A program made the position numbers and the translations under genes. A stretch of DNA of 64,000 bases from a virus (lineage: Duplodnaviria; Caudoviricetes): the IMG/VR virus record IMGVR_UViG_2747842453_000002, positions 1 to 64,000 of that record; one strand, written 5' to 3'. The stretch's first letter is position 1. Each line of letters starts with the position of its first letter. The notes below the pieces were generated by a model. It had not been told where the DNA came from and searched no databases. It saw only the letters and a program-made list of their open reading frames with translations. This document shows, one piece after another, positions 32,759-50,441 of the stretch.

Positions 32759-32779
32759 ATTTTTATATATATTAAAACT

Positions 32780-32807
32780 AAAAAAGCGTTCAAAGAACGC
32801 TTTTTTT
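32780..32807 (+). terminator. Bidirectional intrinsic terminator
   Basis: AAAAAAGCGTTC-AAA-GAACGCTTTTTTT. Confidence 0.85.
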
Positions 32808-32902
32808 ATTGTTGCAGTAATTAATATATATACATATATAAGATTAAACATGATTTGATAAATACTTGTAACATTATAAAGTATACTTTAGGAGAATTAT
32901 AA

Positions 32903-33490
32903 ATGGCATATGCTGTACAATTTAGACGTGGTACTACCGCAAACCACGCATCCTTCACGGGTGAGGCTGGTGAAGTAACTGTAAACACAACTACAAATGA
33001 ACTAGTAGTACATGATGGTACTACTGTTGGTGGGCATACAGTTGGCGGCGTATCGACTGATCCTTCATTTCAATCACTAACTGTTGTTGGTGACTTAGAC
33101 GTATCAGGTGCTACTAAACTAGCAGAAATACATGAAAATGTAACTACTAATATTAGTACAACTGGGACACTATTATTTGATGCTACTACACAAGGTGTTT
33201 TATTTGCTACTGTAGAACAAACTGCTGACAGAGAAATTAATTTTACAAATGTAAATTCAAGTCTTGCAGTTGGCGAAAGTTTCACTGCAGTAATACTATT
33301 GACACAGGGGACAACAGCGTACTATGTGAATGCATATAAAATTGATGATACAGTATGTACGCCAAAATGGTCTGGCGGTTCAGCACCAACAGAAGGAAAT
33401 GCAGATAGCATTGATACATACTCTTTTACAATTATCAAAACTGCTGATGCAACTTTCACTGTAATGGCAAGTCTCACACAATTTGCATAA
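32903..33490 (+). CDS. Short fibre/adaptor protein with Mtd_N-like N-terminus
   Basis: QFRRGTTANHASFTG..HDG; C-terminal KWSGGSAPTEGNADSIDTYSFTIIKT. Confidence 0.7.
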   Translation: MAYAVQFRRGTTANHASFTGEAGEVTVNTTTNELVVHDGTTVGGHTVGGVSTDPSFQSLTVVGDLDVSGATKLAEIHENVTTNISTTGTLLFDATTQGVLFATVEQTADREINFTNVNSSLAVGESFTAVILLTQGTTAYYVNAYKIDDTVCTPKWSGGSAPTEGNADSIDTYSFTIIKTADATFTVMASLTQFA

Positions 33491-33518
33491 AATTTAATAA
33501 TTCAATCGGAGATTTGAA

Positions 33519-34769
33519 ATGCCAAATAACTACAAAGGGCTGAATATATCAGGATTAAAATCAACAACTAAATTATCAAGAGTTCAAGTTGAACCAACTA
33601 TTGATTTTGTTGAGATTACAGATCGTGGATTACTTGATGAACCAATTGCAAAACTAAGAACAGCCGGTGCCGGTCATCAAAAAAGATCAAATGCAAGTCC
33701 AAAGTCTGCAATTGGTACATCTATTGATATGGGTGAATTATGGGAACCGGCATCAATCTATGATTATGGAGAAGTTGAAGAGGGTGCTTTCGCAGTAACA
33801 GAAGACGCTGTTTGGAGTGCTAGACGCAAATTAATGAACCCACCTCCTCCGCCGACAACACCATGGGTAAATAGAGATGATTGGAATGGTGGAACTACCA
33901 GTTACTATAGTGTTCCAACTGGTGATGGTACTTATGGTGCTCATGCTGGTATTCCTAGGGGTAATCAGAGATCAGTAACTTTTAACTCTGACGGTTCAAT
34001 TGGCTATATTATCGGACAAAGTTATATGAATGCATATAATTTATCAGTACCGTATGATCTTGATGCGTCTACAAGAACCAATAGTTATAGTTCATTTACT
34101 GTTACAAATGGATCAGGTAATGTTTCAGCATTAGAGGTGGTTGATAATGGTAACAGAGTTTTAAGAGGTTGGTATGATAGTGTGGCACTTTTTAATTTAC
34201 ATGAAAAAGACGTATTTACCTCGCCGTCTGCGTCTTCAACAGGTTTTCATATGGGTACGCTTACAACTAATCCAAGTTATTATAATTTTAATAATAGTGT
34301 GATGAGTTGGAACATTTCAGGAGATGGAACAAAACTAACTGCATTTATTCTTTGTTCATACTTATCTTACGATTCTGGTACTGATACATGGACCAGATAT
34401 CAAAGTGGTAGCACATACAATACTGGTGTAATTGTTTTCGATTTAACATCTGCATGGGATTTATCTACCGCCACATACTTTTCTTATGGCAATGTTAGTA
34501 ACAATTGGAATCAAACCAGACCTAAGGGGTTCATGGCTCCAGATGGCTTAACTATATGGCTACAGGGTCAAGGCCAAATAAAAATCTATTCATTAGCAAC
34601 TGCATTTGATATGTCATCAACTAGAACATTATTGAGCCAAGCAAATCACTCTAAGCAATTCACTGACACTACATTGACAGTGAGCCCAGATGGTAGATAT
34701 GCATATAGTACTCCAGACCAACCATCGAATGGTAACAGACTAGATATGACAGATTTCGGCGCACCATAA
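33519..34769 (+). CDS. Virion receptor-binding-type protein with beta-propeller-like head
   Basis: N-terminus shared with 34787; YNLSVPYDL, DLTSAWDLSTA and YSLATAFDMSS repeats. Confidence 0.6.
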   Translation: MPNNYKGLNISGLKSTTKLSRVQVEPTIDFVEITDRGLLDEPIAKLRTAGAGHQKRSNASPKSAIGTSIDMGELWEPASIYDYGEVEEGAFAVTEDAVWSARRKLMNPPPPPTTPWVNRDDWNGGTTSYYSVPTGDGTYGAHAGIPRGNQRSVTFNSDGSIGYIIGQSYMNAYNLSVPYDLDASTRTNSYSSFTVTNGSGNVSALEVVDNGNRVLRGWYDSVALFNLHEKDVFTSPSASSTGFHMGTLTTNPSYYNFNNSVMSWNISGDGTKLTAFILCSYLSYDSGTDTWTRYQSGSTYNTGVIVFDLTSAWDLSTATYFSYGNVSNNWNQTRPKGFMAPDGLTIWLQGQGQIKIYSLATAFDMSSTRTLLSQANHSKQFTDTTLTVSPDGRYAYSTPDQPSNGNRLDMTDFGAP

Positions 34770-34786
34770 TCAATTAGGAGAATACG

Positions 34787-35884
34787 ATGCCAAATAACTA
34801 CAAAGGGTTGAATATATCAGGATTAAAATCAACAACTAAATTATCAAGAGTTCAAGTTGAACCAACTATTGATTTTGTTGAGATTACAGATCGTGGATCA
34901 ATCAGTGAAAATCCTAGTAAATTGAGAACAGCCGGTGCCGGTCATCAAAAAAGATCAAATGCAAGTCCCAAGTCGGCAATTGGTACATCTATTGATATGG
35001 GTGGATTATGGGAACCGGCATCAGAATATGACTATGGTAACGTATCTGCCGATGCTTTTGCAGTCGAAGAAGACTCTGTTTGGATTAAACGAAGAAATTT
35101 ATATTCTGTTACAGCACCAACAGCACCATCTATAGAGTATGATACAACATTACTTATTAAAGGAGTTTTCAATCCACTCAGCGCGAGCCCATATGACAAC
35201 TTTAGCGTATCCACAGCAGATGGAACATTAGATGGCACTGAACGCGGACCGGGCTTGGGGCCAGTGGCTGGCACTTCTTTTGACGCAAATGAGTCACCAT
35301 ATGCTAGTGGCGCTGGGGCAACTTATCATTTGTCAAACCATTATTACAAAATTGGCAGTGATTACTATCCTCGGACCGGTGGTTTCACTGGTGCATTTAC
35401 ATTTGAGATGTGGATAAAATGTGAAGCATTACCACCAACAACTGGTGGGAACATTTTGGGATATGACGGCAACCAAGGCGGCAACAAAATATACATTGGT
35501 AATTCTGGAAATGGTAATAAGCTGTATTTCCATAATTGGCACAACGAACCGAGAGCCTGCGATCTCACAAGACACGACATCGGAGACGGAAATTGGCACC
35601 ATATTGCATGGACAAGAGATGATAATTTGGATAGTAGAGTATTTTATGATGGAGTACAGAAAAACACAAGCCCTACCAACGCGAACACTAACTACTATAA
35701 TCCTATAACTTTTCCTGATGCATCATGGAATGACACAAGACCGTGGCACACCCAATCACATCCGCCATACATACATTGTGCACAAACCAGTGGCTGGACT
35801 ACAGATGTTAGATGGATAAACGGTGGAGCATTGTATACTTCGTCGTTCACACCACCAACCGCACCTCTGACTGCTATTCCATAA
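34787..35884 (+). CDS. Virion receptor-binding-type protein with LamG head
   Basis: First 37 aa identical to 33519; FTFEMWIK, WHHIAWTR and YTSSFTPP. Confidence 0.65.
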   Translation: MPNNYKGLNISGLKSTTKLSRVQVEPTIDFVEITDRGSISENPSKLRTAGAGHQKRSNASPKSAIGTSIDMGGLWEPASEYDYGNVSADAFAVEEDSVWIKRRNLYSVTAPTAPSIEYDTTLLIKGVFNPLSASPYDNFSVSTADGTLDGTERGPGLGPVAGTSFDANESPYASGAGATYHLSNHYYKIGSDYYPRTGGFTGAFTFEMWIKCEALPPTTGGNILGYDGNQGGNKIYIGNSGNGNKLYFHNWHNEPRACDLTRHDIGDGNWHHIAWTRDDNLDSRVFYDGVQKNTSPTNANTNYYNPITFPDASWNDTRPWHTQSHPPYIHCAQTSGWTTDVRWINGGALYTSSFTPPTAPLTAIP

Positions 35885-35913: not shown

Positions 35914-35948
35914 AAAACTCTAGCAATATTACATTGTTAGAGTTTTTT
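35914..35948 (+). terminator. Intrinsic terminator
   Basis: AAAACTCTAGCAAT-ATTAC-ATTGTTAGAGTTTTTT. Confidence 0.75.
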
Positions 35949-36009
35949 ATTATTGATTATAAAAGATAAATACACTTGAGTTATTTAAATACACAGGAAC
36001 TATACTACA

Positions 36010-36999
36010 ATGAGACTATTTGATTTAATAGAAAATGAAAATACAAGGGTAGTTATTATCTATCCGGGAAGGTTTCATCCTTTTCATATTGGACATGGAA
36101 AAGTATTTAAGTATCTAAAACAGAAATTTAAAGGTGCACAAGTTTTTATTGCTAGTTCAGGCAAAACAGATGCGCATAAATCTCCATTTTCATTTGATGA
36201 AAAGAAACGTATGATGATGTTAGCAGGTGTTGATCCAAATTCAATAGTACAAGCAAAAATTCCATATGTTGCAAGTGAAATCACAGATAGATATGATCCT
36301 GATAACACAGTTGTTATATATGCGGTATCGGAAAAAGATATGGCCGAAGATCCAAGATTTGATTTTCCTACATCTGGACTAAAGACTAAAAAGAATGGTG
36401 ATCCAGCACATATTCAATTATGGCGAGGAATTGACAATGCAAAGTCACTAAGACAACATTCTTATATTGTAACAGTTCCTACATTTACCTTTAAAATTAG
36501 AGGCAAAGCAGTGAATAGTGCTACACAGATTCGAAATATGATTTCAACTGCGGACGACACAGCGTTAAATCAAATATTACAAGACTTGTACGGGCGCAGT
36601 GATATTCCAGAAAATGTAATAGAAATGTTTAAAAGAAAACTTGGAAGTTCAACTGTTAGTGAAAATTGGGAAGAAGAAGATTTATATTCAATATTACTTG
36701 AAGCAGAATTGCAGCATCAGATGATCACAGAAGACAAATCTGATGTGGAATCCTTTGATGTTAAAACTGCAAGAGCATTGAATAATTTAAAAGTTAAATA
36801 TCCAGGTGCTGATAATTTATTAGGTGCATTAGTTGCTGATGTAGAAGATTCACAAACAGTAAGCAAGAAAAATGATATACAACATAGTATTGACATTGCA
36901 ACAGTTGAAGACAAAATAGATAACAGTATTGCCAAATTAGAGAAACAAATAAATTCACTAACACAGGAATTGAAAAATCTAAAGACTAGTAGAAAATAA
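36010..36999 (+). CDS. HxGH cytidylyltransferase-like nucleotidyltransferase with coiled-coil tail
   Basis: IYPGRFHPFHIGH, SPFSFDEKK and NSATQIR; late promoter at 35965. Confidence 0.75.
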   Translation: MRLFDLIENENTRVVIIYPGRFHPFHIGHGKVFKYLKQKFKGAQVFIASSGKTDAHKSPFSFDEKKRMMMLAGVDPNSIVQAKIPYVASEITDRYDPDNTVVIYAVSEKDMAEDPRFDFPTSGLKTKKNGDPAHIQLWRGIDNAKSLRQHSYIVTVPTFTFKIRGKAVNSATQIRNMISTADDTALNQILQDLYGRSDIPENVIEMFKRKLGSSTVSENWEEEDLYSILLEAELQHQMITEDKSDVESFDVKTARALNNLKVKYPGADNLLGALVADVEDSQTVSKKNDIQHSIDIATVEDKIDNSIAKLEKQINSLTQELKNLKTSRK

Positions 37000-37018
37000 A
37001 GAATATGTGAGAAGATAG

Positions 37019-38737
37019 ATGAAAATTAATGAATTAGATAAAAATATAGGTGTAACACAACAACAACTAGATTCACTTGAAAATGTTCTAGATCGTGTAT
37101 TTGCAAGTGTAGGCATTGATGTTGAGTTTACAAAACACTTTATAGATCGTGTTAATGATGAACGTAATATTCGTCCTATAACTATCAAAGAACTTGCAAT
37201 GTTATTTAAAAAAGAATTTGTTAAATATGGTAAACCAATTGCACAACTAGGCCCAGATGCTCAAGCAGTAATGAAGGACTTAGAAACTGATATTAATATA
37301 CCATTTGTTCTTAATTGGAATGGCGAAGAATTAGAACTAGTTGCAAAAACTGTAATGCGCAAAAAAGATTTTAAATCATCAAATAAAGAATTTGCAGTTG
37401 AAAGTGATGATATTATGGTAAAAGGAAAAAAATCAGATTTTCCAGACAATTATGATGCTACTAACGACACAACATTTAATGATTTTTCTAAAAAAGAATT
37501 TAAACAGGTCGCTATGAAGGCTATCTCATCTCTTAATAAGCAAGAACAAATGGTAATAAAGGCAAGATTTGGATTAGAACCATTCAATACATCATACACG
37601 CTACAACAAATAGCAGATGCTATGAATTTGAGCAGGACACGTATTCGCCAGATTCAAGACAGAGCATTACGTATACTAAAACATCCGAGCCGCTCAAGAG
37701 GCATGAGAAGTTATCTGAACCAGAGTAAAGAATTCACAGTTGAAAGTGATAACCAATCTGGTGTGTATTCCGATGAAAAGAATAACGTTGAAATTCATTG
37801 GAAACGAATAGATCATCCCAGCGTAGCAAAAGATCATCTAGACATAGAAGCATATCAAAATGGCAAGCGCGTGGATATTAATAATCAACAAGCAGATCAT
37901 TATAGATATTTAATTAATCAGGAAATGAATGAAACTGAAACATTGGGATCTAAAATAAACTTTCCTGGAATGTCTGGCACAACAGTAAATACATCGACCA
38001 CTACTAAAACAAGAGTGCCAACTCCTAAACCAGCTAGAAATAGATTTGACAAAATTGTAAATTGGAGTAAAAGTTTATTCAATTCAGAAGGAATAAATGA
38101 AGATATCGGTTCATTACCTCCATTAGTAGACTTGATTGTTCTTGCTGTACTAGCACAGACTACAGTTGCTGGTATTAAAACAATGTTTAAAGTTGCAGTT
38201 AAAACTGGCAAAGGTCTTAACAAACTTCGTAAACTTACAAAACAAGCAGGTATAGCATTAGATGCCAAGTTATCAGAAAGTGAAATGGTAGAAGATTTTT
38301 TAGCAGATAAGTCTGAACAAGAAAAGAAATTTTGGAATGCAGCATTGGAAGCACTACATAGATTACAAGGATCTAAAGAGTCAAAACAGTCAATTGAAAG
38401 TTATGCGTTTGACATTGCAAGATCATTCAATGGAATGAGTTCAAAAGAATTATTGGCATTGTATAAATTAAAATATGGAATTGATGAGACTTTAGAAGAA
38501 GCAAAACAAAGTAATCCATTAGTAGTATTGGACAAACTTGCAGATAGATCAGACAACAATGCATTTCCTGTCAAGTTTTATGATGATACTGTAATAAAAG
38601 TAACACCCAAAAAAGCAAAGAAATTTATGGATGTATACTATCAAATGGCAGATGAACAACGTGATGTTATCAACAAATATATAAAAACGAAAAAAGGATT
38701 TATGCAGGCTATTAACGATTTTAATATTCCTATATAG
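37019..38737 (+). CDS. Modular putative internal head polyprotein including a sigma70 region-4 domain
   Basis: MKINE start; FTKHFIDRVND module; RFGL..YTLQQIA..NLSRTRIRQIQDRALRILKHPSRS (RpoD-r4-like); E-ending linkers. Confidence 0.7.
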   Translation: MKINELDKNIGVTQQQLDSLENVLDRVFASVGIDVEFTKHFIDRVNDERNIRPITIKELAMLFKKEFVKYGKPIAQLGPDAQAVMKDLETDINIPFVLNWNGEELELVAKTVMRKKDFKSSNKEFAVESDDIMVKGKKSDFPDNYDATNDTTFNDFSKKEFKQVAMKAISSLNKQEQMVIKARFGLEPFNTSYTLQQIADAMNLSRTRIRQIQDRALRILKHPSRSRGMRSYLNQSKEFTVESDNQSGVYSDEKNNVEIHWKRIDHPSVAKDHLDIEAYQNGKRVDINNQQADHYRYLINQEMNETETLGSKINFPGMSGTTVNTSTTTKTRVPTPKPARNRFDKIVNWSKSLFNSEGINEDIGSLPPLVDLIVLAVLAQTTVAGIKTMFKVAVKTGKGLNKLRKLTKQAGIALDAKLSESEMVEDFLADKSEQEKKFWNAALEALHRLQGSKESKQSIESYAFDIARSFNGMSSKELLALYKLKYGIDETLEEAKQSNPLVVLDKLADRSDNNAFPVKFYDDTVIKVTPKKAKKFMDVYYQMADEQRDVINKYIKTKKGFMQAINDFNIPI

Positions 38738-38747
38738 TAACTATACC

Positions 38748-40469
38748 ATGAACATAAATGAAATACAATCACCAAAGATAAAAATTACAGACAATACACT
38801 AACGGAATCTGTAAATAAAGTAGTGGCGATTAATGAAGGTTACAAGTTACAACTAGAGCGTGACACTGATATGATGGTGTTACATATTACTGATACGGCA
38901 ACTGGCAAGCGTACAGAAGTTCGTGGTAAGAGTGGCTACGAAACAGGCGGATATGATTCAACAGATAGCTTGCATATTCTACTAGACAAGATAGGCAAAA
39001 GTGCTAATATCAGTGACCTAATGAATGGCGATACTGTTGGCATTAATCCTAAACATCCTAAAGGTGCAAGTGCAAACGCTGCAGCAACTACAGCGTTTAA
39101 TGAATCCTTAAACAACCCATATCCATTTAATCTTACTGGACCAAGTGAGTCACAAGAATTTTCAGCAATTGCAAAAACACCAAATGGTGTGTTAAGAATG
39201 GACTTTGAAACAACTGACTATGATAACTTTGGTATTGACTTTTCAGTTGGCAAGAGCATGGGCAAAACAGATGCAGGTGACGAGTTTAGAGTATTCTCAA
39301 CTGTAGTTGCAATGATGACAAAGTGGATCAAAACAGTTGGTATTGAACACGTAGAAAGTTTTGATTTTGGTGCTAACAAAGGTGAACATGCTAGTGACGG
39401 CAGAGCAAAACTGTATACTAGATTTGCTAAACAACTTGCTAGTAAACTAGGTTGGAAGTTAGAGCAAAGTACCACAAGAGATAATAACACAGCATTCTTT
39501 AGACTAGTTAATCCTAAACCAATACCACGTGAACAAGAGTATTGGGATGCACTAGATGAAGGAGTTGAAGTATCGTTACACGGTGATGCTAAAAAAGGTT
39601 ATGTGTTATCTAAGATTGAAGTATCAGGCGATGAGCGTAATGCTGGTCAAGGTACAAAAGCAATGCAAGACATTGTTGACAGAATGGATAGAGAAGGTGC
39701 TATTATCGCACTAACACCAGACGATGCGTTTGGTGGAAACAAGAATAGATTAATCAAATTCTATAAGCGTTTTGGTTTCGTACCAAACAAAGGTCGTAAC
39801 AAAGATTTTCGTTTTAGAGAAACAATGATCCGTTATCCACAAGGCAACGAAAGTGTTAATGAAGTATCAAAAGAAGAGTTTGATGCTATTCAGAATGGAT
39901 ACGTTGATATTGAGTTTGATAAGAAATGGTGGCCTCTAAACGATGATTATCCACTGGTCAAACATATAGGTAATGCTATTGGTGCAACTAGTTGGACTAG
40001 TTGGGGCAAAGTTGGAGTTCCATGGTCTGAAACAGAAATGATTGGTGGGGGTGGCACATATATGCTTAAAGGAGACTTTGGACATATACTGTTGGATACT
40101 GCAAAGAGTTATCGCCCAGATAAAATCGTAATGTCACAAATATCAACGTCCAAACGAGGCGGTGGCATTGGTGCTAAAGTTATGAATGCAATAAAATCAT
40201 ATTCAGATCAAAACAAATTACCATTAACAATATATAAAGTAACTAATCAGAAGTTTTTTGACAAGTTTGAATGGCTAAAAAAGACAGGTGTTGATACATA
40301 CGAATATAGTGTCAATGAAGTTAAAGAATCTGCTGGTGTTGGTCGTGTCGTAAAAGGTGTTAACACTACTGTTGACGTAGGTGTAGATGAAATCATCAAT
40401 CAAGTCAAAAAGTTTGGCAATGATGTTGATAGAGATGGCAAACCAAAAAAGAATTTAAGAAACAAATGA
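38748..40469 (+). CDS. Modular putative internal head polyprotein with two GNAT domains
   Basis: MNINE start; ERNAGQGTKAM..RLIKFYKRFGF and KRGGGIGAKVM GNAT motifs; ESVNE linkers. Confidence 0.7.
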   Translation: MNINEIQSPKIKITDNTLTESVNKVVAINEGYKLQLERDTDMMVLHITDTATGKRTEVRGKSGYETGGYDSTDSLHILLDKIGKSANISDLMNGDTVGINPKHPKGASANAAATTAFNESLNNPYPFNLTGPSESQEFSAIAKTPNGVLRMDFETTDYDNFGIDFSVGKSMGKTDAGDEFRVFSTVVAMMTKWIKTVGIEHVESFDFGANKGEHASDGRAKLYTRFAKQLASKLGWKLEQSTTRDNNTAFFRLVNPKPIPREQEYWDALDEGVEVSLHGDAKKGYVLSKIEVSGDERNAGQGTKAMQDIVDRMDREGAIIALTPDDAFGGNKNRLIKFYKRFGFVPNKGRNKDFRFRETMIRYPQGNESVNEVSKEEFDAIQNGYVDIEFDKKWWPLNDDYPLVKHIGNAIGATSWTSWGKVGVPWSETEMIGGGGTYMLKGDFGHILLDTAKSYRPDKIVMSQISTSKRGGGIGAKVMNAIKSYSDQNKLPLTIYKVTNQKFFDKFEWLKKTGVDTYEYSVNEVKESAGVGRVVKGVNTTVDVGVDEIINQVKKFGNDVDRDGKPKKNLRNK

Positions 40470-40503
40470 TGTATAAAATCAACGAACACATAGGAGCAAT
40501 GAA

Positions 40504-40608
40504 ATGCCAATAATGTTACCAACTCGTCCAAGGGATGGAAAAGAAGTAAAAGTAAATAATAAAACATTTCGTTGGAATCAAAGTAAAAACAGATGGGAAA
40601 TGGTATAA
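40504..40608 (+). CDS. 34-aa microprotein MPIMLPTRPRDGKEVKVNNKTFRWNQSKNRWEMV
   Basis: AGGAG RBS 7 nt upstream; resembles the FP..P..G......T..W...W fibre N-terminal motif. Confidence 0.55.
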   Translation: MPIMLPTRPRDGKEVKVNNKTFRWNQSKNRWEMV

Positions 40609-40636
40609 TTACCATTTATAATTTAGGAGAGTTATA

Positions 40637-43600
40637 ATGCCAATTCTAGGATCATTCGCAAGTGGTGCAATCGGCACGGTCGGACTTGCACAACAAGCAA
40701 TGCTTGCATTTTTAAAAGCATCAACCGCAATATCAGGATCATCATTCGTCCTACAACAACTTATAGGAGGGCCAGATGGCTCGTACATTGCTGGGCGGAA
40801 TAATAGTATTAACGGACAAAGTAGTTTTGCTGCTGATGGTGATTATTTAGTTACTGGGTCGGGTTGGACTAATGAAGTTTTGGTTTGGAACTTATCAGAC
40901 GGTTCGTTACATATGACTATACCAGCCCCATCGCCACCTCCACAGACTAACGGCTATGGTTGGCAAATTGATATACATGGAGATTATTTTATTACAGGTA
41001 ACGGCGGCACCGGCGGTGGCTATACAACCATACATAATGTATCAACCGGGGCTCTAATTACATCATTTACCGGCGCAGCTAGAAATGTTGCAATTGATGA
41101 AAATTATGCAGCGGCGTGTGCCAATGGTGGACCGATTAAAATATTTGAATTGGCAACCAGCACTCTTACAACCTTCCCGGATCCAAATGGCGGATTAGCT
41201 GACTTGATGGATATATCTGGTAATAATTTGATACTTGCGCCAAATAATGGCTCCCTAATAACAGTGCATGATATACCTACTGCTTTATCTAATGGCAATT
41301 TAAATACTACTAGCCTGACAATAAATACAACAGTTAGTTACTTTCAAACATTGATCGCTGGAGGTAATTATTTGGCGTTAGGCAGAACAGGTGCCGGAGA
41401 CCAAAGCATTTTGATTTATGATCTAACTACGGGAACACTACTTCATACTTTGCCCGCACCAGTAGGCGCGAGTGCAGCGTTTGGTAATGCGATAGATATA
41501 AAAGGCAATTATTTAGTTGCGGGACATCGAGGACAGGAACAGTATTCCCCTGCTGCAGTATATGATTTAACAACTGGCATATTATTACAAACGTTCACAG
41601 GCGATGATATTCCCGACACATCTACATGGCAGAATACAGACGTTGATAAGCTATTAGGCACCGCAGTAGCAATCACTGACAGTAAAACCATTATCGGTTC
41701 TAGCAGTGGCGGTGAAAGTGCAAACAATTGGCTTGGTGCGTTTCTTATATACTCTAATCCTGGCCAAGCAGCAATATCTGAAGAAGTATCCTTGGACTGG
41801 AGTAATATTACATTAGAACATACACTAGATAATCCAAATCCATTTGGTACTAGTGAGAATGATCAATTTGGCATGGATATTGCAATGTCTAGTACACATG
41901 CAATTATTGGTACATACGCAGAAGACGATGCTGGCGGTACTAATTCAGGTAAAGCCTATATCTTTGATCTAACAACAGGATTATTACTTCATACATTAGA
42001 TAATCCAAATCCAGTTGGCACAAGTACTGATGATTGGTTTGCATATTCAGTCGCAATATCTGATACATATGCAATAGTTGGTGCTTTTAGAGAAGAGCAT
42101 AATTCAGTAACTGGTGGGAATGCAGGGAAAGCATATATCTATAAGCTATCTGATGGATCATTAATAAAGACATTGATCAACCGGGATACGAATGGCAATC
42201 CGATTGGTGATCTGTTTGGCCACGGAGTTGCAATATCTGATACACATGCGATTGTTAGTGCGTGGGGCGAAGATTGGGGCTCTACGGGCACGGTGTCTGG
42301 TGTTGGGAGCGTTTATATCTATGACATATCACCCGAGGGGATAGTGACAGGGCCTCGTGCGTCAATGATTATAAGCAATCCCTCGGACTATCCGAATGGT
42401 TATTTTGGCTGGGGAGTTGAGATGAATGATAATTATGTAATTGTTACTTCACCCAATGATGAAGTAGGCAAAGCATATATCTTTAATGTATCCGATGGAT
42501 CATTAGTATATACATTAGATAATCCAGGTGGATTTGACGCGGCGTCGAGAAATGATAATTTTGGTGCAACACGAAATTTCTGGCATTCGACAAGTCAGGC
42601 GGCGATATCTGATAATTATGCAATTGTTAGTGCACCATATGAAAATGACGCTGATGGACTTTTTGCCTCGGGCATAGTATATGTTTTTGACATGTCAGAT
42701 GGATCATTAGCACATACACTTTATAATCCAAATCCATTTGGTACTACTCAAGAAGATTATTTTGGCATGTCAGTTGATCTTGATGGTGACTTTGTAATTG
42801 TTGGCGCACCATATGAAGATGATGCAGGTACTAACTACGCAGGCAAGGCCTATATCTTTGATCTAACAGATGGATCATTAGTAAATACAATAGATGATCC
42901 AAATGCCTTTGGTACTACTGATAATGATAGATTTGGCCACGCAGTTGCAATGTCCGATGGGCGTGCTCTTATAAGTGCTAGTAGAGAAGATGATGGCAGT
43001 GGCACTTCTGCAAATTCTTCAGGCAAGGCTTATATCTTTAGTGCACAAACTACAGTAGCAAGTGCACCTGCAGCGGGACCTGCAGACTGGAGTAATGCTA
43101 CATTAGCATATACATTAGATAATCCAAATCCGTATGGTACGAGTCAGAATGATTACTTTGCTAATGTCGCAATATCTAGCACATATGCAATTATAGGTGC
43201 GCAAAATGAAATGCTAAATGAATCGGAGACTTATGGTGGTATAGCCTATATTGTTGACCCATCAGATGGATCATTAGTATATACACTACATAATCCCAAT
43301 CAGGGTACTGGTTCAGAAATTGGGGATATGTTTGGCATTTCGACCGCAATATCTGATACACATGCAATTGTAGGTGCGTATAGCGAAGATGATTCAAATG
43401 GTCTTAATTCAGGTATAGCCTACATTTTTGACTTATCAGATGGATCATTGGCACATACAATAAATAATCCAAATGCGTATGGTACTGCTACGTCGAATGG
43501 CTACTCCAATGATGGATTTGGATATGCAGTGGCAATATCTGATACACACGCAATCGTTGGTGTACCATCTGAAGATGATGCCAATGGCGCTGGGAGTGCA

Positions 43601-45178
43601 TTCAGTGGGAATGATTCGGGTAAAGCCTACATTTTTAACGTATCTGATGGTTCATTATTACATACCTTAGATAATCCAGATGCTTATGGTGACGGTGTAT
43701 ACGATTGGTTTGGCGGGTCAGTAGCAATATCTGATACACACGTAATCGTTGGCGCGCGTGGCGAAGATGATACTGGTGGCGATGGATCAGGTAAAGCATA
43801 TATCTTCAATGTGACTTCAGGTTCTCTAGTTTATACCTTAGATAATCCTAATGCATATAGTACAAGTGCAGGAGATCAATTTGGCCAATCAGTAGCAATA
43901 TCTGATACACATGCAATTGTAGGTGCGTATAACGAAGATGATGCTGGTGGTACAACTTCAGGTAAAGCATATATCTTTGACCTATCAGATGGATCATTAG
44001 CATATACACTACATAATCCAAATCAACATGGTACTAGTCAAAACGATCATTTTGGGTGGACAGTTTCAATATCTGATACACATGCAATTGTAAGTGCAAT
44101 GTTAGAAGAGGATGCTGATGGTAATAGTTCAGGTAAAGTCTACATATACGACTTATCAGATGGATCATTAACAAATACATTAGATAATCCAAATGCTTAT
44201 GGTACTAGTGAGGGTGATAGATTCGGTAGCACAGTGGCAATATCTGGCTCAAATATAATTGTAGGCGCAGTATTTGAAGATGACGCTGGTGGTACAAGTT
44301 CAGGCAAATCCTATATCTTTAGTGCAAGTGCACCTGCAGAAGAATCTACTGGATGGACTATTGATCTTTCTAATGTGACATATGACTCTGAATTTAGTTT
44401 AAACAATCAAATGACAAGTTATGCGACTGGTCAAACCTTAAGCACTGACGGTACAAAGTTATATGTAGTTGGTCAGAATCAATTCGCACCCACGACATGG
44501 ATTACACAGGTGTGGCAATATTCCTTATCCACTGCCTTCGATATCAGTACCGCTTCATATGATAATGTTACCTTTAATCCATCTAGTCAGGATACTAATC
44601 CTATGGGCATAGATTTCAATACTGACGGTACGAAGATGTATTTAGTCGGTACTAATAGTGATTTGGTGCTTCAATATTCTCTCAGTACTCCATGGGATGT
44701 AAGTACCGCTTCATATGACAATGTATCGATTAGTGCACCGGGTACGTTTGGCCTATATTTCAAAGATGATGGCACGAAAATGTATACGACTGGGTTTGAT
44801 GCGAACTTAACAGGCGTGAGATCATTTTCTTTATCAACAGGTTTCGATCTAAGTACTGCCACTGATGATCTCTCAACTTACAGTTCAATTGCCGTCACTG
44901 GAGGAAATCCTTTTGTCGCGGCTTTGAACCCAGATGGCACAAAAATGTATATCCTTGGTAACAGATCAATATACCGTTATTCCTTATCGACAGCTTTTGA
45001 CGTAAGTACAGCCACCTACGATAACGAAAGTATTTCTTTAAGTAATGAGTTCCATTTGATGTATAACATGGAGATATCACGTGATGGCACTAAGATATAT
45101 GCAGTTGGAACCTCGCCTGGGACGGGCCCCACCACTGGTTCTAGTAGAAGCGTAGTGCAATTCGACACAGGTTTATGA
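40637..45178 (+). CDS. Large FG-GAP repeat virion protein with C-terminal propeller repeats
   Basis: Many LDNPN.YGT..D.FG.SVAISDTHAIVGA..EDD..SGKAYIF units; DGTKMY..YSLSTAFDVSTA repeats. Confidence 0.8.
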   Translation: MPILGSFASGAIGTVGLAQQAMLAFLKASTAISGSSFVLQQLIGGPDGSYIAGRNNSINGQSSFAADGDYLVTGSGWTNEVLVWNLSDGSLHMTIPAPSPPPQTNGYGWQIDIHGDYFITGNGGTGGGYTTIHNVSTGALITSFTGAARNVAIDENYAAACANGGPIKIFELATSTLTTFPDPNGGLADLMDISGNNLILAPNNGSLITVHDIPTALSNGNLNTTSLTINTTVSYFQTLIAGGNYLALGRTGAGDQSILIYDLTTGTLLHTLPAPVGASAAFGNAIDIKGNYLVAGHRGQEQYSPAAVYDLTTGILLQTFTGDDIPDTSTWQNTDVDKLLGTAVAITDSKTIIGSSSGGESANNWLGAFLIYSNPGQAAISEEVSLDWSNITLEHTLDNPNPFGTSENDQFGMDIAMSSTHAIIGTYAEDDAGGTNSGKAYIFDLTTGLLLHTLDNPNPVGTSTDDWFAYSVAISDTYAIVGAFREEHNSVTGGNAGKAYIYKLSDGSLIKTLINRDTNGNPIGDLFGHGVAISDTHAIVSAWGEDWGSTGTVSGVGSVYIYDISPEGIVTGPRASMIISNPSDYPNGYFGWGVEMNDNYVIVTSPNDEVGKAYIFNVSDGSLVYTLDNPGGFDAASRNDNFGATRNFWHSTSQAAISDNYAIVSAPYENDADGLFASGIVYVFDMSDGSLAHTLYNPNPFGTTQEDYFGMSVDLDGDFVIVGAPYEDDAGTNYAGKAYIFDLTDGSLVNTIDDPNAFGTTDNDRFGHAVAMSDGRALISASREDDGSGTSANSSGKAYIFSAQTTVASAPAAGPADWSNATLAYTLDNPNPYGTSQNDYFANVAISSTYAIIGAQNEMLNESETYGGIAYIVDPSDGSLVYTLHNPNQGTGSEIGDMFGISTAISDTHAIVGAYSEDDSNGLNSGIAYIFDLSDGSLAHTINNPNAYGTATSNGYSNDGFGYAVAISDTHAIVGVPSEDDANGAGSAFSGNDSGKAYIFNVSDGSLLHTLDNPDAYGDGVYDWFGGSVAISDTHVIVGARGEDDTGGDGSGKAYIFNVTSGSLVYTLDNPNAYSTSAGDQFGQSVAISDTHAIVGAYNEDDAGGTTSGKAYIFDLSDGSLAYTLHNPNQHGTSQNDHFGWTVSISDTHAIVSAMLEEDADGNSSGKVYIYDLSDGSLTNTLDNPNAYGTSEGDRFGSTVAISGSNIIVGAVFEDDAGGTSSGKSYIFSASAPAEESTGWTIDLSNVTYDSEFSLNNQMTSYATGQTLSTDGTKLYVVGQNQFAPTTWITQVWQYSLSTAFDISTASYDNVTFNPSSQDTNPMGIDFNTDGTKMYLVGTNSDLVLQYSLSTPWDVSTASYDNVSISAPGTFGLYFKDDGTKMYTTGFDANLTGVRSFSLSTGFDLSTATDDLSTYSSIAVTGGNPFVAALNPDGTKMYILGNRSIYRYSLSTAFDVSTATYDNESISLSNEFHLMYNMEISRDGTKIYAVGTSPGTGPTTGSSRSVVQFDTGL

Positions 45179-45193
45179 TAATGTAGCAAGTTA

Positions 45194-45221
45194 AATGGAT
45201 GCGATTTTATTCGCATCCATT
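45194..45221 (+). terminator. Hairpin after the FG-GAP gene (weak U-tract)
   Basis: AATGGATGCGA...TCGCATCCATT. Confidence 0.5.
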
Positions 45222-45247
45222 ATCTGTTTAATTTGATAAATACTATT

Positions 45248-45454
45248 ATGAAAATAAATGAGATCATATCTGAAAACTTTGCCGGAGCATTTGCTAGTGT
45301 TCCCATGGGATTGGGTGCGGGTGATCCAAATGCAAGTGTGTATGCAAAAAAGCCTGCCACTAAAAAGAAAAAGAAATCAAAGATGGGATATAGTGCAGAT
45401 GTAGGCAACCTTGCTTACACAACTCCAGTAAAAAGCCCAATGATTAAACGATAA
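45248..45454 (+). CDS. Small basic putative internal head protein
   Basis: MKINEIISE start 5 nt after the GATAAATA box; Lys-rich. Confidence 0.65.
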   Translation: MKINEIISENFAGAFASVPMGLGAGDPNASVYAKKPATKKKKKSKMGYSADVGNLAYTTPVKSPMIKR

Positions 45455-45465
45455 GGTAGATTAAA

Positions 45466-47295
45466 ATGAAACTGTCACAACTAATTGAATCTTTTGTAAT
45501 CTCTAATGATGAATTCGAAGATTATTTAAATAGAGCAACTGAACAACTAGTATCAGAATTATCATCAGGTAAAAATCCACGTGATGCAGTTCATGATTTA
45601 GCATTAACTTTTGCAGATCAACACAATAAATCTTATGATGCATACCAACGTATGGCAGACTCACTTGAGGCTCGGATGCACACGTTGGAAATGAATAGTC
45701 CCACCGATATGATGAACGGGCCAGAAGATGATATGGGAATGGGCAGTGTTGATGAGCCAGAAATGATGAGTGATCCAATGGGCAACATGGAAATGAATAC
45801 ACCAGCAAGTTCTGAGATGCCAAGTGACAGTGACATGGAAGATTATTCAGCGGTAATGGGCGAAGGTCGTATGAGTGATCAACTTATTGATGATGCTGAA
45901 AACATGACTAAGAAAGAATTTGAGAAGAAACACGGTAAAGAAGCAGCAAGAGATATGTTTGACGAATCTATTAACGAAGATTCAGATGAAGAAAAAGCGC
46001 GCCAACGTGCACTTGCTAAAGCAGATGAACCAGAGCGTGGCGAAGAGAGAAAGAAAGTATCTCTAAAGAAAGCACCATGGGAAGAATCAATAAAAGAAGA
46101 AGAAGAAGAATGCAAATATTGCGGCGGTGATTGCCCTAATGATGAAGAACACGCTTGTGACGGCTACTTGGGCGACATTGATGGACTATATGAAGCACCT
46201 TGGGAAGAGTCAGTAAATGAAAAATACCGTCAGTCAACACAAGCGGAAATTGATGCAGATGAGAAAAAATACCGCAAATCTGCAGGTAAAAAACGTCCAA
46301 GCATATCACCCAAATCTATTGACAAAAATATGTACGATAATATGAAAGGCAAACTGAAAGAAGGTGATAAAGAACAAGTTAAAGTAATCTTTAGAAAATT
46401 CCCCGAGGGCGATGTGATTGCATTGTTCCCAGAAGTTGATCAGGGTCGCGGTCTGATTGGTTCATACATGACAATTGGTCAGCATGGTGACGCAGCAAAG
46501 TCATTGATTACTGACTTAGAACCAGCGTCAAAAGAAGAATATGCAAAACTAGCCGCTGAACTAGAGCGTATTGGTTATGATATTGTTATAGCTGAGTCAG
46601 TTAATGAATTAACTATTGCTGATGTGAAAGCGGCTACAGAAAAAGCAAAAAAGCGCCAAGAAAAAGAAAGAAAAGATACAGGAAAGAGTAGTGTATCTAC
46701 TACTGATCTTGCTTCACGACTTAAAGAAGCAAAAGCAATGGATACAATTCGTAAAATTGCAGATGAAAAAAGTGCAATGAAAGTTAAATTTGATAATGGT
46801 CAAATGATGGTCGATATGTTTACTGCATCTGCAATTAAATCAGTATATGATAACGTAAATGATGCAAATAAAGAAAAACTAGACAACCTAATGAAAACAA
46901 AAGACGGCATGATGAAAGTGGCAAATCTTTCAATGAAAATGCTGAAAGAAGGCAAAATTGGCGATCTTGCAAGTAAAGGCATCGGCGCAGCCAAAAGAGG
47001 CATTAGCGCATTATCTGATAAAAATAAAGATATGAAAAATATGTCTATTGCTAAAAAACAAGATATCGCAAATAAAGGTATGGCAATTTCAAAGAAAGCG
47101 GCAGATGTTACTGGGAAAGTAAGTTCACGTTTACAATCTGTTGGTAAAGTAGCAAAAGGTATAGGATCAGCAATCGCAGCGCAGCCGGAATTTGGTTTAG
47201 GTGGCAGTTCATATTCGGGCAGAAGAGAATCAATCGAATCAATCACAGATAAAATCATGAATGAATCGATCAAAAAGGCAAACAAAGAAAAATAA
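45466..47295 (+). CDS. Acidic/basic modular putative prohead-core or internal polyprotein
   Basis: MKLSQLIES start; repeated ESINE, ESVNE and LKEG linkers; VIFRKF..GDVIALFPE..GQHG and VKFDNG..VDMFTASAI modules. Confidence 0.65.
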   Translation: MKLSQLIESFVISNDEFEDYLNRATEQLVSELSSGKNPRDAVHDLALTFADQHNKSYDAYQRMADSLEARMHTLEMNSPTDMMNGPEDDMGMGSVDEPEMMSDPMGNMEMNTPASSEMPSDSDMEDYSAVMGEGRMSDQLIDDAENMTKKEFEKKHGKEAARDMFDESINEDSDEEKARQRALAKADEPERGEERKKVSLKKAPWEESIKEEEEECKYCGGDCPNDEEHACDGYLGDIDGLYEAPWEESVNEKYRQSTQAEIDADEKKYRKSAGKKRPSISPKSIDKNMYDNMKGKLKEGDKEQVKVIFRKFPEGDVIALFPEVDQGRGLIGSYMTIGQHGDAAKSLITDLEPASKEEYAKLAAELERIGYDIVIAESVNELTIADVKAATEKAKKRQEKERKDTGKSSVSTTDLASRLKEAKAMDTIRKIADEKSAMKVKFDNGQMMVDMFTASAIKSVYDNVNDANKEKLDNLMKTKDGMMKVANLSMKMLKEGKIGDLASKGIGAAKRGISALSDKNKDMKNMSIAKKQDIANKGMAISKKAADVTGKVSSRLQSVGKVAKGIGSAIAAQPEFGLGGSSYSGRRESIESITDKIMNESIKKANKEK

Positions 47296-47299: not shown

Positions 47300-47328
47300 T
47301 TGACAACCTAACAATACTATGCTATATT
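47300..47328 (+). promoter_or_regulatory. sigma70 promoter of the replication operon
   Basis: TTGACA-17-TATATT with extended TG. Confidence 0.8.
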
Positions 47329-47358
47329 AAATGGAGTTCTTAGAGAGCTCCATTTTTT
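47329..47358 (+). terminator. Intrinsic terminator of the upstream late operon
   Basis: AAATGGAGTTCT-TAG-AGAGCTCCATTTTTT. Confidence 0.75.
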
Positions 47359-47642: not shown

Positions 47643-50441
47643 ATGAGTTATGTAGATGCATACTACAACAAAGACAAAGATATTGTAAATGTCGTTGAAC
47701 GAAAAGACGGCAAACGTATATATCAAGATTATCCAGCGTGGCGTACATTTTATGTGCGCGATGATAGAGGATCACATACTAGTATTCATGGTGAAAAAGT
47801 TCGTCAGGTAAAGGTAAAACGATTAAAAGACATGCACAAAGAATTGCGTATGAATTCTGATAAAAAAATATATGAGAGTGATATAAAACCTGAGGTTAGA
47901 TGTCTTGCTGAAAACTATCTGAATTTAGATTCACCAAAATTAAATGTTGCATTCTTCGATATTGAAGTTGACTTTGACGCTGATAAAGGATTTGCGCCAC
48001 CTGAAGATCCTTTTATGCCAATTACTGCTATTACAGTACACTTACAATGGTCAAATCAACTTGTTACCTTTGTTATGCCACCAGAGCATATGAGGGATGG
48101 TGAAGGTCTAGTAGAAGCACAGCGTCTATGTGATAAATTTCCAGATACATTTCTATATCTAAGTGAAGCCGACATGTTAAATGACTTCTTAACACTTATA
48201 GATGATGCAGATGTTCTTAGCGGATGGAATAGCGAAGGCTTTGATATTCCGTACACCGTAAATCGTATTGTTCGAGTTTTAAGCAAATCACATACTCGTA
48301 AATTATGCCTCTGGGACCTTCTTCCAAAAGCAAAGACTATCGTTAAGTATGGCAAAGAACAAATTAGTTATGTTTTAAGTGGACGTATTCATCTAGATTA
48401 TCTAGAATTATATCGCAAATATACATACCATGAAATGCATTCATACTCACTTGATGCAATTGGCGAATATGAATTAAGTGAACGAAAAGTTGCATATGAA
48501 GGTACATTGGATCAACTATATAATCAAGATTTTTATAAGTTTATAGAATATAATAGACAAGATGTTGCATTACTTGATAACCTAGATAAAAAACTAAGAT
48601 TCATTGATCTAGCGAATGAAATCGCGCATGACAATACCGTTAATATTCAAACTACAATGGGTGCTGTTGCTGTTACCGAACAGGCAATTATCAATGAAGC
48701 ACATCGTCGAGGTATGGTTGTGCCCGATAGAAAAAAACGTAGTTGGGATGTGGAAGATGAAGATTATGAACCAACACTAGAAGAGGAAGCAGCCGCAGAA
48801 GCACAGAAAGCAGCGGGCGCATTTGTTGCTAATCCTCAGATTGGCGTACAACGATGGGTAGCAGGTATTGATATTAATTCTCTATACCCGAGTATTATTC
48901 GTGCATTGAATATGTCGCCGGAAACCATCACTGCACAACTAAGACAAGATTATACAGAAGAAATGATACAAAATCGTATCAGGTCTGGACGCGGTGGTAA
49001 GAACAAAGGCTATGGTGCAGCACAAGCATGGGAAGATACATTTTCAACAGAAGAATTTAGGTTCTTTAATGAAAAAGATAAAACAACCATAATGAATTTA
49101 GACATGGAGAATGGTGAGGTACATGAAGTTACTGGTGCAGAAGCATTCGATTTAGTATATAATTCAGATTTGCCATGGGCTATAAGTGCGAATGGTACCG
49201 TATTCAAACAAGATATTCAAGGTATTATTCCTAGTCTGTTAGAACGCTGGTATGCTGAACGTAAAGTTCTTCAAAAGAATATGCGTGAAGTTAGAGAAAA
49301 CGGTGGCTCAGATGAAGAAATTGCGTTTTGGGATAAACGACAACTAGTTAAGAAGATTAACTTGAACAGCCTATACGGTGCGATTTTGAATCAAGGCTGT
49401 CGATTTTATGATAAGCGCATCGGACAATCTACTACTCTGTCAGGTCGTTGCATCACAAGACATATGGGTGCAAAGACAAATGAAGTAATCGATGGCACAT
49501 ATGATTATAAAGGCAAATCCGTGATATACGGTGACACAGATTCTATCTATTATTCAATGTATCCATCATATCAAAAAGAGATTGATAGTGGTGAGATTGA
49601 ATGGAATAAAGAAATTGCTCTTACAATGTATGATGAAATCGCCAATCAAGTTAATGCTAGTTTTCCAGATTTTATGAAAGAGTTTTTCAATTGTCCACGC
49701 AACCAAGGCGAAATCATTGCCGCTGGACGTGAGAACTTAGCAACTATGGCTATCTTTATTAAGAAGAAAAGATATGCTATGCTTATCTATGATGATGATG
49801 GTATACGGCGTGATATTGATGGCAAACCTGGCAAAGTAAAAGCAATGGGACTTGACTTGAAACGTAGTGATACTCCTGATTATATGCAAAACTTTCTTAG
49901 TGAATGTCTTGTTAAAGTTCTTACCGGCGGCGAACAAAACGATATTATTACAATGGTTAAAGAATTCAAAAAAGAATTTCGTGAAAAGCCTGGTTGGGAG
50001 AAAGGCACTCCTAAACGTGTTAATAATTTAACTAAGTTTAAAAATGATGTATCAAAATATAAACGTGCACAAAATGCAGATTTTAAATTACGAAGATCAG
50101 AAGACAAACTGGAAAAGCCACGTTTACCCGGACATGTTAGTGCAGCATTGAATTGGAATACTTTGCGTGAAATGAATGGTGATAGATACTCAGTTGAAAT
50201 AACTGATGGTATGAAAACTATTGTATGTAAATTACGTGATAATCCAATGAAAATGACAAGTATTGCATATCCAATTGATGAACCTCGTATTCCACAATGG
50301 TTTCAGGATCTTCCATTTGACCATGATTCTATGGAAATAGCAATTATTGATAAAAAGATTGATAATCTAATTGGTGTTCTAAAGTGGGATCTTAGTGCTG
50401 CAAACACCAGTGAACAATTTGAAAATTTATTTGAGTTTTAA
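47643..50441 (+). CDS. Family B DNA polymerase (gp43-like)
   Basis: FFDIEVD (Exo I), GWNSEGFDIPY, DINSLYPSII, KINLNSLYG and YGDTDS. Confidence 0.95.
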   Translation: MSYVDAYYNKDKDIVNVVERKDGKRIYQDYPAWRTFYVRDDRGSHTSIHGEKVRQVKVKRLKDMHKELRMNSDKKIYESDIKPEVRCLAENYLNLDSPKLNVAFFDIEVDFDADKGFAPPEDPFMPITAITVHLQWSNQLVTFVMPPEHMRDGEGLVEAQRLCDKFPDTFLYLSEADMLNDFLTLIDDADVLSGWNSEGFDIPYTVNRIVRVLSKSHTRKLCLWDLLPKAKTIVKYGKEQISYVLSGRIHLDYLELYRKYTYHEMHSYSLDAIGEYELSERKVAYEGTLDQLYNQDFYKFIEYNRQDVALLDNLDKKLRFIDLANEIAHDNTVNIQTTMGAVAVTEQAIINEAHRRGMVVPDRKKRSWDVEDEDYEPTLEEEAAAEAQKAAGAFVANPQIGVQRWVAGIDINSLYPSIIRALNMSPETITAQLRQDYTEEMIQNRIRSGRGGKNKGYGAAQAWEDTFSTEEFRFFNEKDKTTIMNLDMENGEVHEVTGAEAFDLVYNSDLPWAISANGTVFKQDIQGIIPSLLERWYAERKVLQKNMREVRENGGSDEEIAFWDKRQLVKKINLNSLYGAILNQGCRFYDKRIGQSTTLSGRCITRHMGAKTNEVIDGTYDYKGKSVIYGDTDSIYYSMYPSYQKEIDSGEIEWNKEIALTMYDEIANQVNASFPDFMKEFFNCPRNQGEIIAAGRENLATMAIFIKKKRYAMLIYDDDGIRRDIDGKPGKVKAMGLDLKRSDTPDYMQNFLSECLVKVLTGGEQNDIITMVKEFKKEFREKPGWEKGTPKRVNNLTKFKNDVSKYKRAQNADFKLRRSEDKLEKPRLPGHVSAALNWNTLREMNGDRYSVEITDGMKTIVCKLRDNPMKMTSIAYPIDEPRIPQWFQDLPFDHDSMEIAIIDKKIDNLIGVLKWDLSAANTSEQFENLFEF

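Follow-up and report, generated by a model that had tools for sequence, protein, structure and literature searches.

This study analyzed a 64-kb window of viral DNA (Duplodnaviria; Caudoviricetes), the first 64 kb of the 120,762-bp IMG/VR record IMGVR_UViG_2747842453_000002 (G000; estimated completeness approximately 30%), and focused on five genes with a shared leader, designated O1, O2, O3, O4s, and O5. The results suggest that these genes probably encode head-packaged, protease-released effector polyproteins of a T4-related giant myovirus. The proteins consist of modules behind a leader, the joints between the modules carry an invariant Glu, the modules are shuffled among relatives at these joints, and relatives encode a gp21-type prohead protease. 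Because the junction Glu is invariant and accompanied by a hydrophobic residue two positions back, the leaders are T4-like, and a gp21-type protease is present in relatives, the simplest account of the five proteins is that they are prohead-protease substrates, and from it we infer their packaging, cutting, and injection. For the comparisons, 41 related loci were collected through two scans of viral contigs, and the five proteins were compared against them by using tblastn. L-numbers denote these related contigs or loci, and G001, G002, and G003 denote protease-bearing relatives. The coordinates of all features are listed in Table 1.

The N-termini read MRLFDLIE in O1, MKINEL in O2, MNINEI in O3, MKINEIISE in O4s, and MKLSQLIES in O5. 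A first-pass annotation, made from the DNA alone, had pointed out the similarity of these five starts, and both the open reading frames (ORFs) and their start positions were as it described. The record contains 114 ORFs, and an N-terminus of the pattern M-[KRNL]-[ILFM]-x-[EDQ]-[ILFVM] was confined to these five genes and one minus-strand ORF, the chance expectation being roughly estimated at ~0.3; in G001, it occurred in 5 of 381 ORFs, a prohead-core gene among them. The family-wide leader consensus is M-K/R-(I/L/F)-x-(E/D)-(I/L)-x-E. By pattern match, the ends of all the propeptides (MRLFDLIE/, MKLSQLIE/, MKINEIISE/, MKINE/, and MNINE/...AINE/, the slash marking the putative cut or joint here and below) conform to L/I-x-E. 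The triplet [IVL]NE was present 10 times in the 1822 amino acids (aa) of the leader genes versus 0.7 times per 1000 aa elsewhere in the genome, an approximately 8-fold difference. The leaders of O1 to O5 resemble the T4 capsid-targeting sequence MKTYQEFIAE, and the propeptide of T4 gp24 (MAKINELLRE in the T4 record) is near MKINEL, MNINEI, and MKINEIISE. Standalone homologs of module A, the first module of O2, start with MKTFLQFE in phage Melnitz (family Kyanoviridae) and with MKSFEQYIEE in phage GD1. The minus-strand ORF with the same leader (25458-26117, 219 aa, MKINEMIE start) had no Pfam or PHROG match and, judging from its N-terminus, may represent a sixth cargo gene, lying beyond the interval of the other five.

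The first-pass annotation had also assigned functions to several modules. Its HxGH nucleotidyltransferase in O1 was confirmed through a match to CTP_transf_like (PF01467, E 3e-10), with a further match to phrog_395 (cytidylyltransferase-like), and the O1 orthologs stopped or diverged at residues 217/218 and 241/242. Its RpoD region 4 in O2 likewise matched Sigma70_r4 (PF04545, E 6e-14) and the very C-terminus of RpoD in PDB (E 5e-13), and O2 additionally matched phrog_23027. The two proposed GNAT domains of O3 fared unequally: the first just passed the Pfam cutoff and the second was weak, and the motif R-x-x-G-x-G was present in both. The proposed "HF-DRV" nuclease-like module, module A, was modeled using AlphaFold from 36 sequences, with a predicted local distance difference test (pLDDT) value of 74; residues 1-9 and 128-131 were disordered, and the fold ran helix-strand-helix-helix-three-strand. 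Its structural matches, at modest scores, were RelE (Z 6.9), T4 RegB (Z 6.4), CdiA-CT, and ParE; Foldseek gave E 0.08, and the two structural searches agreed on the BECR fold. An invariant His40 in a helix and Thr111 in the last strand agree with the PBECR configuration (PMC5512222). According to this model, module A is predicted to be a BECR-fold, RelE/RegB-like domain. Whole O3 folded poorly (AF2, pLDDT 58), and its model served for the confidence profile only. In that profile, the low-confidence segments (residues 1-29, 264-301, 366-392, and 523-573) covered the leader and all of the five joints but one. O2, with a BECR-like domain and sigma-70 region 4, and O3, with two GNATs and two other modules, each combine effector-type domains of unrelated function. 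Searches of O5, its VIFRKF..GQHG module included, against Pfam, PHROG, PDB sequences, and ESM Atlas yielded no leads. O4s was 73-100% conserved in the syntenic relatives L004-L009 and L017.

The joints between these modules were analyzed in two directions. In the forward test, the conserved starts of six module families served as the anchor, and all distinct upstream contexts from the window and the related loci were counted. The results revealed a Glu before the module start in 59 of 59 internal junctions, as the last linker residue in 49 and as the next-to-last in 10. A hydrophobic residue (I, L, V, F, M, or Y) stood two positions before the junction Glu in 48 of these 49, and the commonest middle residue was Asn. 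The linker sequences before the Glu varied (KVDE, KTNE, TVVE, IYTE, and KLSE), with the Glu and the hydrophobic residue two back constant. In the reverse test, the residue after the conserved module end was counted on database homologs. Glu came next in 57 of 60 contexts of module A (Gln in 3), 51 of 53 of module I, 35 of 43 of module II (Asp in 8), and 27 of 28 of GNAT1. When module A was the last module, the protein ended in ...F-x-V and the Glu was absent in seven of eight contexts. The loss of the Glu where no module follows indicates that it is a feature of the joint rather than of the module.

Consistent counts were obtained inside the modules. Hydrophobic-x-E was depleted within the O3 modules (2 observed versus 7.4 expected, p = 0.007), whereas the control genes of the genome exhibited no depletion (437 versus 409 expected). 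O3 has ten hydrophobic-x-E sites, five of which coincide with five breakpoint clusters. In an unanchored analysis of BLAST high-scoring segment pairs from 88 non-redundant homologs, 35.8% of 875 breakpoint clusters lay within four residues of hydrophobic-x-E versus 14.5% of random positions; this analysis is noisy, and the anchored counts of module starts and ends are the cleaner test. The coding of the ESVNE linker varied, with Ser encoded by AGT, TCA, or TCT and several codons used for Val, Ile, and Asn. Because the codons vary and the peptide remains the same, selection acts on the peptide. We also considered that the linkers are relics of TAATG stop-start gene junctions or internal translation starts, and, without a test aimed at it, dropped this idea because the linkers contain no in-frame Met, the frames are continuous, and the codons vary.

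The comparison of relatives revealed where modules are gained and lost. Closer relatives keep the syntenic cluster O1, O2, O3, O4s, and O5, with a differing internal gene make-up in tblastn. The tblastn breakpoints of O3 fell at residues 27-30 (AINE/G), 113-122 (AFNE/S), and 267-273 (LDE/G) in the N-terminal half and at 365-372 (NE/SVNE/V) and 520-527 (SVNE/VKE/S) in the C-terminal half. Module orders in relatives included II-GNAT1-GNAT2-I-tail, GNAT2-I, and GNAT1-I-II'-II, and additional modules comprised ParB_N, a poly(A)-polymerase/CCA-adding head domain (PolyA_pol), a second nucleotidyltransferase, and DUF6934; cytidylyltransferase was among the domains so added. Modules were permuted, inserted, and deleted across L004-L044 and the 467 database homologs of O3; among the matches listed, these homologs displayed many other domain combinations and also brought an NT5C domain. 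Module A is carried by 2100 short proteins.

In an alignment of eight O2 orthologs, the sigma-4 cassette (residues 129-241) was confined to the O2 of the window, where it is flanked by KEFAVE/SD and KEFTVE/SD; the L005 ortholog lacks it, and its flanks are 98% and 94% identical to the window. Module C is missing exactly between VE/ and xxE/ in L006, L009, and L024, and O2 orthologs also insert a small module exactly between Glu-ending joints. The O5 orthologs, when aligned, have or lack cassettes at ES[IV]NE joints, and the Cys-rich mini-module, with APWEES on its flanks, is located at different joints in different phages, L006 being one with another joint than the window. The first-pass annotation had listed the Glu-ending linkers and suggested comparing orthologs for module gain or loss at them; gain and loss did fall at x-x-E linkers, so that the refuting condition named there did not occur, and the other predictions open to computation were likewise borne out. 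Most of the listed linkers coincided with breakpoints (AVE/S at residue 128, TVE/S 241, INE/D 361, FNE/S 119, LDE/G 271, ESVNE 372/524, and ESINE 171), whereas LTE/S (O3 residue 20) lies inside the leader and LKE/G (O5 residue 299) had loose support as a breakpoint.

These data bear on the view that the proteins are uncleaved multidomain single chains of the polyvalent type, packaged or not, in which the Glu linkers are recombination joints and are not read by a protease. Domain mosaicism is extensive in known polyvalent proteins, some of which, such as the N4 virion RNA polymerase, are packaged uncut (PMC5512222). Two cassettes here have short flanking DNA repeats, and the junction of O3 modules I and II was modeled as a continuous helix. 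However, recombination joints would be expected to be conserved as DNA, yet Ser is encoded by both AGT and TCA/TCT; the sequence before the Glu differs widely, yet the Glu and the hydrophobic residue two back are retained. The disappearance of the Glu where no module follows, the depletion of the motif inside modules, and the sharing of the motif with the scaffold, a known protease substrate, further argue against uncleaved chains, which we consider unlikely.

We further analyzed the link to a head protease. T4 gp21 cuts after the Glu in L/I-x-E, removes propeptides of 7-65 residues, and chops the core proteins (PMC9026906). Neither the protease (PF03420) nor the capsid protein (PF07068) was found in the 120-kb record itself, a result that is uninformative rather than negative because the record is only approximately 30% complete; PF03420 was also absent from the fragments of five further relatives. 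G001 (300 kb), G002, and G003 encode polyprotein homologs together with a PF03420 protease above the cutoff, in which the catalytic His and Ser are conserved and whose gene adjoins the scaffold and gp23-type capsid genes. In the capsid proteins of these relatives, the predicted sites HLAE/N and YIAE/S occupy the position expected for maturation. The N-termini of their core proteins read MKLFEFFE, which is the start of the small prohead-core gene adjacent to the protease, and MNKFEQLIE, and these proteins contain LVNE/D and MDE/SIDE/S. When the 381 ORFs of G001 were ranked by density of hydrophobic-N-E, the top rank fell to the scaffold, at 11.0 per 1000 aa, and the next to the polyprotein, at 9.8, compared with a background of 1.36. 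Between the portal and prohead-core genes of G001 lies an ORF (L052 8950-9972) with a radical-SAM-like Cys motif, SFCNLHCPQCP.

The same results bear on the timing of cleavage. The proteins could be packaged intact and remain uncut until host or co-injected proteases process them following injection, or they could function as a chain passing through the tail, and processing of the former kind has been proposed for polyvalent proteins (PMC5512222). However, Pfam detected no peptidase domain in the polyproteins or in the relatives examined, and the motif fits the head protease, which is active inside the prohead. We regard this alternative, in either form, as very improbable.

The expression context was examined in the flanks of the locus, which lies between tail-fibre-like genes (26495-35884) and the DNA polymerase operon; nearly all window genes are on the plus strand. 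A GATAAATA box precedes O1, and its GATAAATAC form, located 38 nucleotides (nt) before O1, recurs ahead of two tail-fibre-like genes, 29729 and 32903, at a distance of 39-45 nt. On sequence grounds, the GATAAATA/GATAAATAC box is likely a late-promoter variant of the T4 TATAAATA box. Because O1 and the tail-fibre-like genes share the box at similar spacing, the arrangement suggests T4-type late transcription of the locus. The canonical TATAAATA count in the window was at chance level (11 versus 11.9 expected); the informative part is the placement of [G/T]ATAAATA boxes before genes, not their count. GATAAATA boxes, often in the GATAAATAC form, were observed 5-45 nt before start codons at window positions 9021, 10828, 29677, 32857, 35965, 45235, 58697, and 60760, and boxes beyond the window in G000 were observed at 81797, 104127, and 118288. 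Hairpins and a sigma-70-like promoter separate the locus from its neighbors; this promoter reads TTGACA-17-TATATT, matches 11 of 12 hexamer positions, and has TG before the second hexamer.

Such borders matter for the proposal that the proteins are unpackaged cytoplasmic host-takeover proteins, with N-termini resulting from translation-start selection for A/T-rich codons after ATG and with linkers that are cut, if at all, by another Glu-specific protease. The locus adjoins the DNA polymerase operon, and a sigma region 4, acetyltransferases, and an RNase-like domain would suit early takeover; in addition, many module A homologs are leaderless, and the sigma-70 and late promoters are candidates only. 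Nevertheless, the leader pattern is not general, as all but one of its occurrences in the record fall within the locus; a terminator and the strong sigma-70-like promoter part the locus from the polymerase operon; and the locus shares its GATAAATAC box with the tail-fibre genes. No other Glu-specific protease was identified, and a ClpP-like gene is present elsewhere in the record. The cytoplasmic proposal thus appears quite improbable. The ClpP-like gene (G000:C1:118587-119186, beyond the window) is an ORF starting with MPTLVPMVVDQSANGERSYDIF that resembles a ClpP protease subunit by reading of its translation.

Table 1. Features of the polyprotein locus and its borders (positions in the window)
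Feature	Position	Strand	Description
Terminator-like hairpin	35914-35946
GATAAATA box	35965..35972	+	T4 late-promoter-like; 38 nt upstream of O1
O1	36010..36999	+	leader 36010-36033; HxGH nucleotidyltransferase module, residues 9-218 (36034-36663)
O1, remainder			short spacers ending TVSE/N and MITE/D, then coiled-coil tail
O2	37019..38737	+	leader MKINE 37019-37033; BECR-fold module A (predicted) 37034-37402; sigma-70 region 4 cassette 37403-37741
O2, continued		+	module C 37742-38101; hydrophobic and C-terminal modules 38102-38734
Direct repeat around sigma-4 cassette	37389..37409 (left, KEFAVESD); 37731-37751 (right, KEFTVESD)	+	89-93% identity; families D17/D20
O3	38748..40469	+	leader with three x-x-E sites 38748-38837; module I 38838-39104
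O3, continued		+	module II (DUF6934-like) 39105-39560; GNAT1 39561-39863; GNAT2 39864-40319; basic tail 40320-40466
FG-GAP protein	40637..45178	+	1513 aa; PF14312, 13 repeats, E 2e-108; four C-terminal ~50-aa repeats
Terminator-like hairpin	45194-45221		after FG-GAP gene
Second GATAAATA box	45235..45242	+	5 nt before O4s start codon; role uncertain
O4s	45248..45454	+	leader MKINEIISE/, then small Lys-rich protein (68 aa)
O5	45466..47295	+	leader MKLSQLIE/ 45466-45489; conserved acidic Met-rich N-domain to 45864
O5, continued		+	variable cassette zone 45865-46362, with ES[IV]NE joints and Cys-rich mini-module
O5, continued		+	VIFRKF..GQHG module 46363-46608; C-terminal region 46609-47292
APWEES repeats flanking O5 Cys-rich mini-module	46063-46101 and 46186-46224		D16
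Right border of locus	47300..47355	+	sigma-70-like promoter 47300-47328, then hairpin, then DNA polymerase operon
Terminator-like hairpin	47329-47355

The polymerase gene (47643-50441) encodes a family B enzyme (phrog_262) that is closest, at 42-49% identity, to those of Phosso, Atu_ph07, XbC2, and GAP32. This closeness to giant T4-related phages identifies the phage, as judged from its polymerase, as a T4-related jumbo myovirus. Its host is probably aquatic because the homologs derive from Tara and other water metagenomes. None of 50,697 phage records matched the locus in a megablast search. The FG-GAP gene between O3 and O4s was rejected as part of the cargo system: it has neither leader nor linkers, and it is missing between O3 and O4s in L004, whose O3 is 98% identical. 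Its absence from L004 indicates a recent insertion into the cargo locus, and its product is probably a surface or fibre protein. A 34-aa ORF (40505-40609, MPIMLPTRPRDGKEV...) with AGGAG upstream lies between O3 and the FG-GAP gene. Upstream of the locus, three consecutive genes (26495-33490) have the common N-terminus MAYAV(K/Q)(Y/F)RRGTTAEH/NHASFTG (phrog_9648, tail protein) and differing bodies, and genes 33519 and 34787 have MPNNYKGLNISGLKSTTKLSRV in common. All five are predicted from these shared segments to be paralogous receptor-binding proteins.

Several observations weigh against a packaged and cleaved set of proteins. The O2 leader has a single site, I-N-E at residues 3-5, which would leave a propeptide of just 5 residues; the shortest known in T4, that of Alt, has 7. 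Many standalone module A proteins begin without a leader (e.g., MDQPVTQ and MAEITQ). When O1 and O5 were compared by BLASTP with the prohead-core proteins of G001, both acidic and small, no similarity was significant, and the resemblance of the leaders therefore rests on a short pattern. The joints of module A have Ala, Thr, or Pro at the third position from the end (F-A-V-E), nearer to the A-x-E of phiKZ and SPN3US than to L/I-x-E. The junction between O3 modules I and II was modeled by AF2 as a helix with fair confidence. The protease and capsid genes are absent from the record fragment of the window itself (~30% complete). The GATAAATA box before O4s is too near the start codon for a usual leader RNA. 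A cultured case is gp159 of Sinorhizobium phage phiM12 (L070 2540-4348, 602 aa), a T4-superfamily phage; this protein carries module A at its C-terminal end, and toward its N-terminus it is similar to the nucleotidyltransferase module of L027. It is annotated as hypothetical, and a neighboring gene is labeled a virion structural protein. Like Melnitz and GD1, phiM12 is a cultured phage in which module A comes with a CTS-like leader (CTS, capsid-targeting sequence). In the literature, no isolate of the group with a virion proteome was found, and nothing usable turned up for GD1 virus or phiM9/phiM12.

On the reading of O1 to O5 as prohead-protease substrates, delivery would proceed as follows. 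The amphipathic leader of 8-13 residues (M-K/R-(I/L/F)-x-(E/D)-(I/L)-x-E) would bring the protein into the prohead core. Behind it are independently folding modules, each linker ending in a Glu with a hydrophobic or small residue two back and often Asn between. During head maturation, a gp21-type prohead serine protease would cut the joints, and one leader would thus deliver several proteins of 10-17 kDa: a nucleotidyltransferase, a BECR-type RNase-like domain, a free sigma-70 region 4, two acetyltransferases, and small basic proteins. The released proteins would remain in the head and enter the host along with the DNA. Cassettes are exchanged at the linker-coding DNA, in some cases extended by the final codons of the preceding module, and this DNA may act as a short-homology joint, a recombination mechanism suggested by the flanking repeats. 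Modules would be autonomous once released, and their order would therefore not matter; the free permutation fits independently working parts. We lean slightly toward the more general proposal that aquatic T4-related giant phages carry a beads-on-a-string payload, with one leader, cuts at every joint, and joints that serve as universal splice points for effector swapping.

If this proposal is true, large phages would diversify the proteins injected at the first moment of infection, before phage gene expression, by using a modular format in which a few residues per joint encode targeting, release, and exchange. The tolerance of any module order would be explained, and a leader combined with Glu-ending joints would provide a sequence rule for finding head-delivered effectors in metagenomes. 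The free sigma-70 region 4, the RelE/RegB-like RNase, the acetyltransferases, nucleotidyltransferases, ParB-like nucleases, and the CCA-adding-type enzyme would be candidates for takeover or counter-defence. The arrangement would also offer a natural, plug-and-play design for packing several proteins into T4-type capsids.

The searchable literature yielded no report of the combination described here, in which unrelated enzymes are strung together after a single T4-type leader, each joint bears a prohead-protease-type site, a peptidase domain of their own is lacking, and modules are shuffled combinatorially at precisely these joints; nor did it yield one joining "polyprotein" with prohead protease and ejection proteins. 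The closest known systems share parts of it. The ejection and inner-body proteins of phiKZ, 201phi2-1, and SPN3US likewise belong to giant phages with many head-internal proteins and multiple cuts after Glu per chain; in the portions of these sources consulted, the phiKZ-group protease (gp175/gp245 type) cuts at (S/A/G)-x-E, the multiple cuts remove long propeptides, and neither enzyme strings nor shuffling of sites is described (PMC5694885, PMC10052503). The phiKZ-type motif is approached only in module A, at its A-V-E and T-V-E joints. The five proteins do not belong to this type, given a T4-related family B polymerase and, in relatives, a gp23-type capsid and PF03420. In polymorphic toxins or effectors fused to MuF, effectors enter the head on a head-targeting part, as proposed here, and a GNAT2-like module is fused to the Phage_Mu_F head protein in L039. 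There, however, the carrier is a whole head protein domain instead of a short cleavable leader, with one effector per chain.

Polyvalent proteins (Iyer, Burroughs, Anand, de Souza, and Aravind 2017; PMC5512222) also combine several effector-type domains per chain (BECR RNase-like, ParB, GNAT, and nucleotidyltransferases), and their genes lie near virion genes, with predicted injection and strong mosaicism. Of their hallmark domains, the BECR fold was matched here at modest scores, ParB_N and MuF occur in relatives, and the zincin-like peptidase (MPTase) was not found. For polyvalent proteins, processing by this built-in peptidase, or no processing, has been proposed (PMC5512222), whereas the proteins described here have a prohead-protease-type site at each joint and T4-type leaders. 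The T4 internal proteins IPI, IPII, IPIII, and Alt are the nearest in design, although they have no sequence homology to those described here. They too have a short leader ending in hydrophobic-x-Glu and are encoded at a locus that varies between related phages (PMC9026906); injection as small basic or enzymatic cargo and cutting after Glu by a gp21-family protease, both known for T4, would apply here as well. O4s, small and Lys-rich, is reminiscent of the small basic internal proteins of T4. In T4, however, each leader carries one cargo and is removed in a single cut (Alt at both ends), whereas here up to five or six modules follow one leader, with a site at every joint, and are permuted among relatives.

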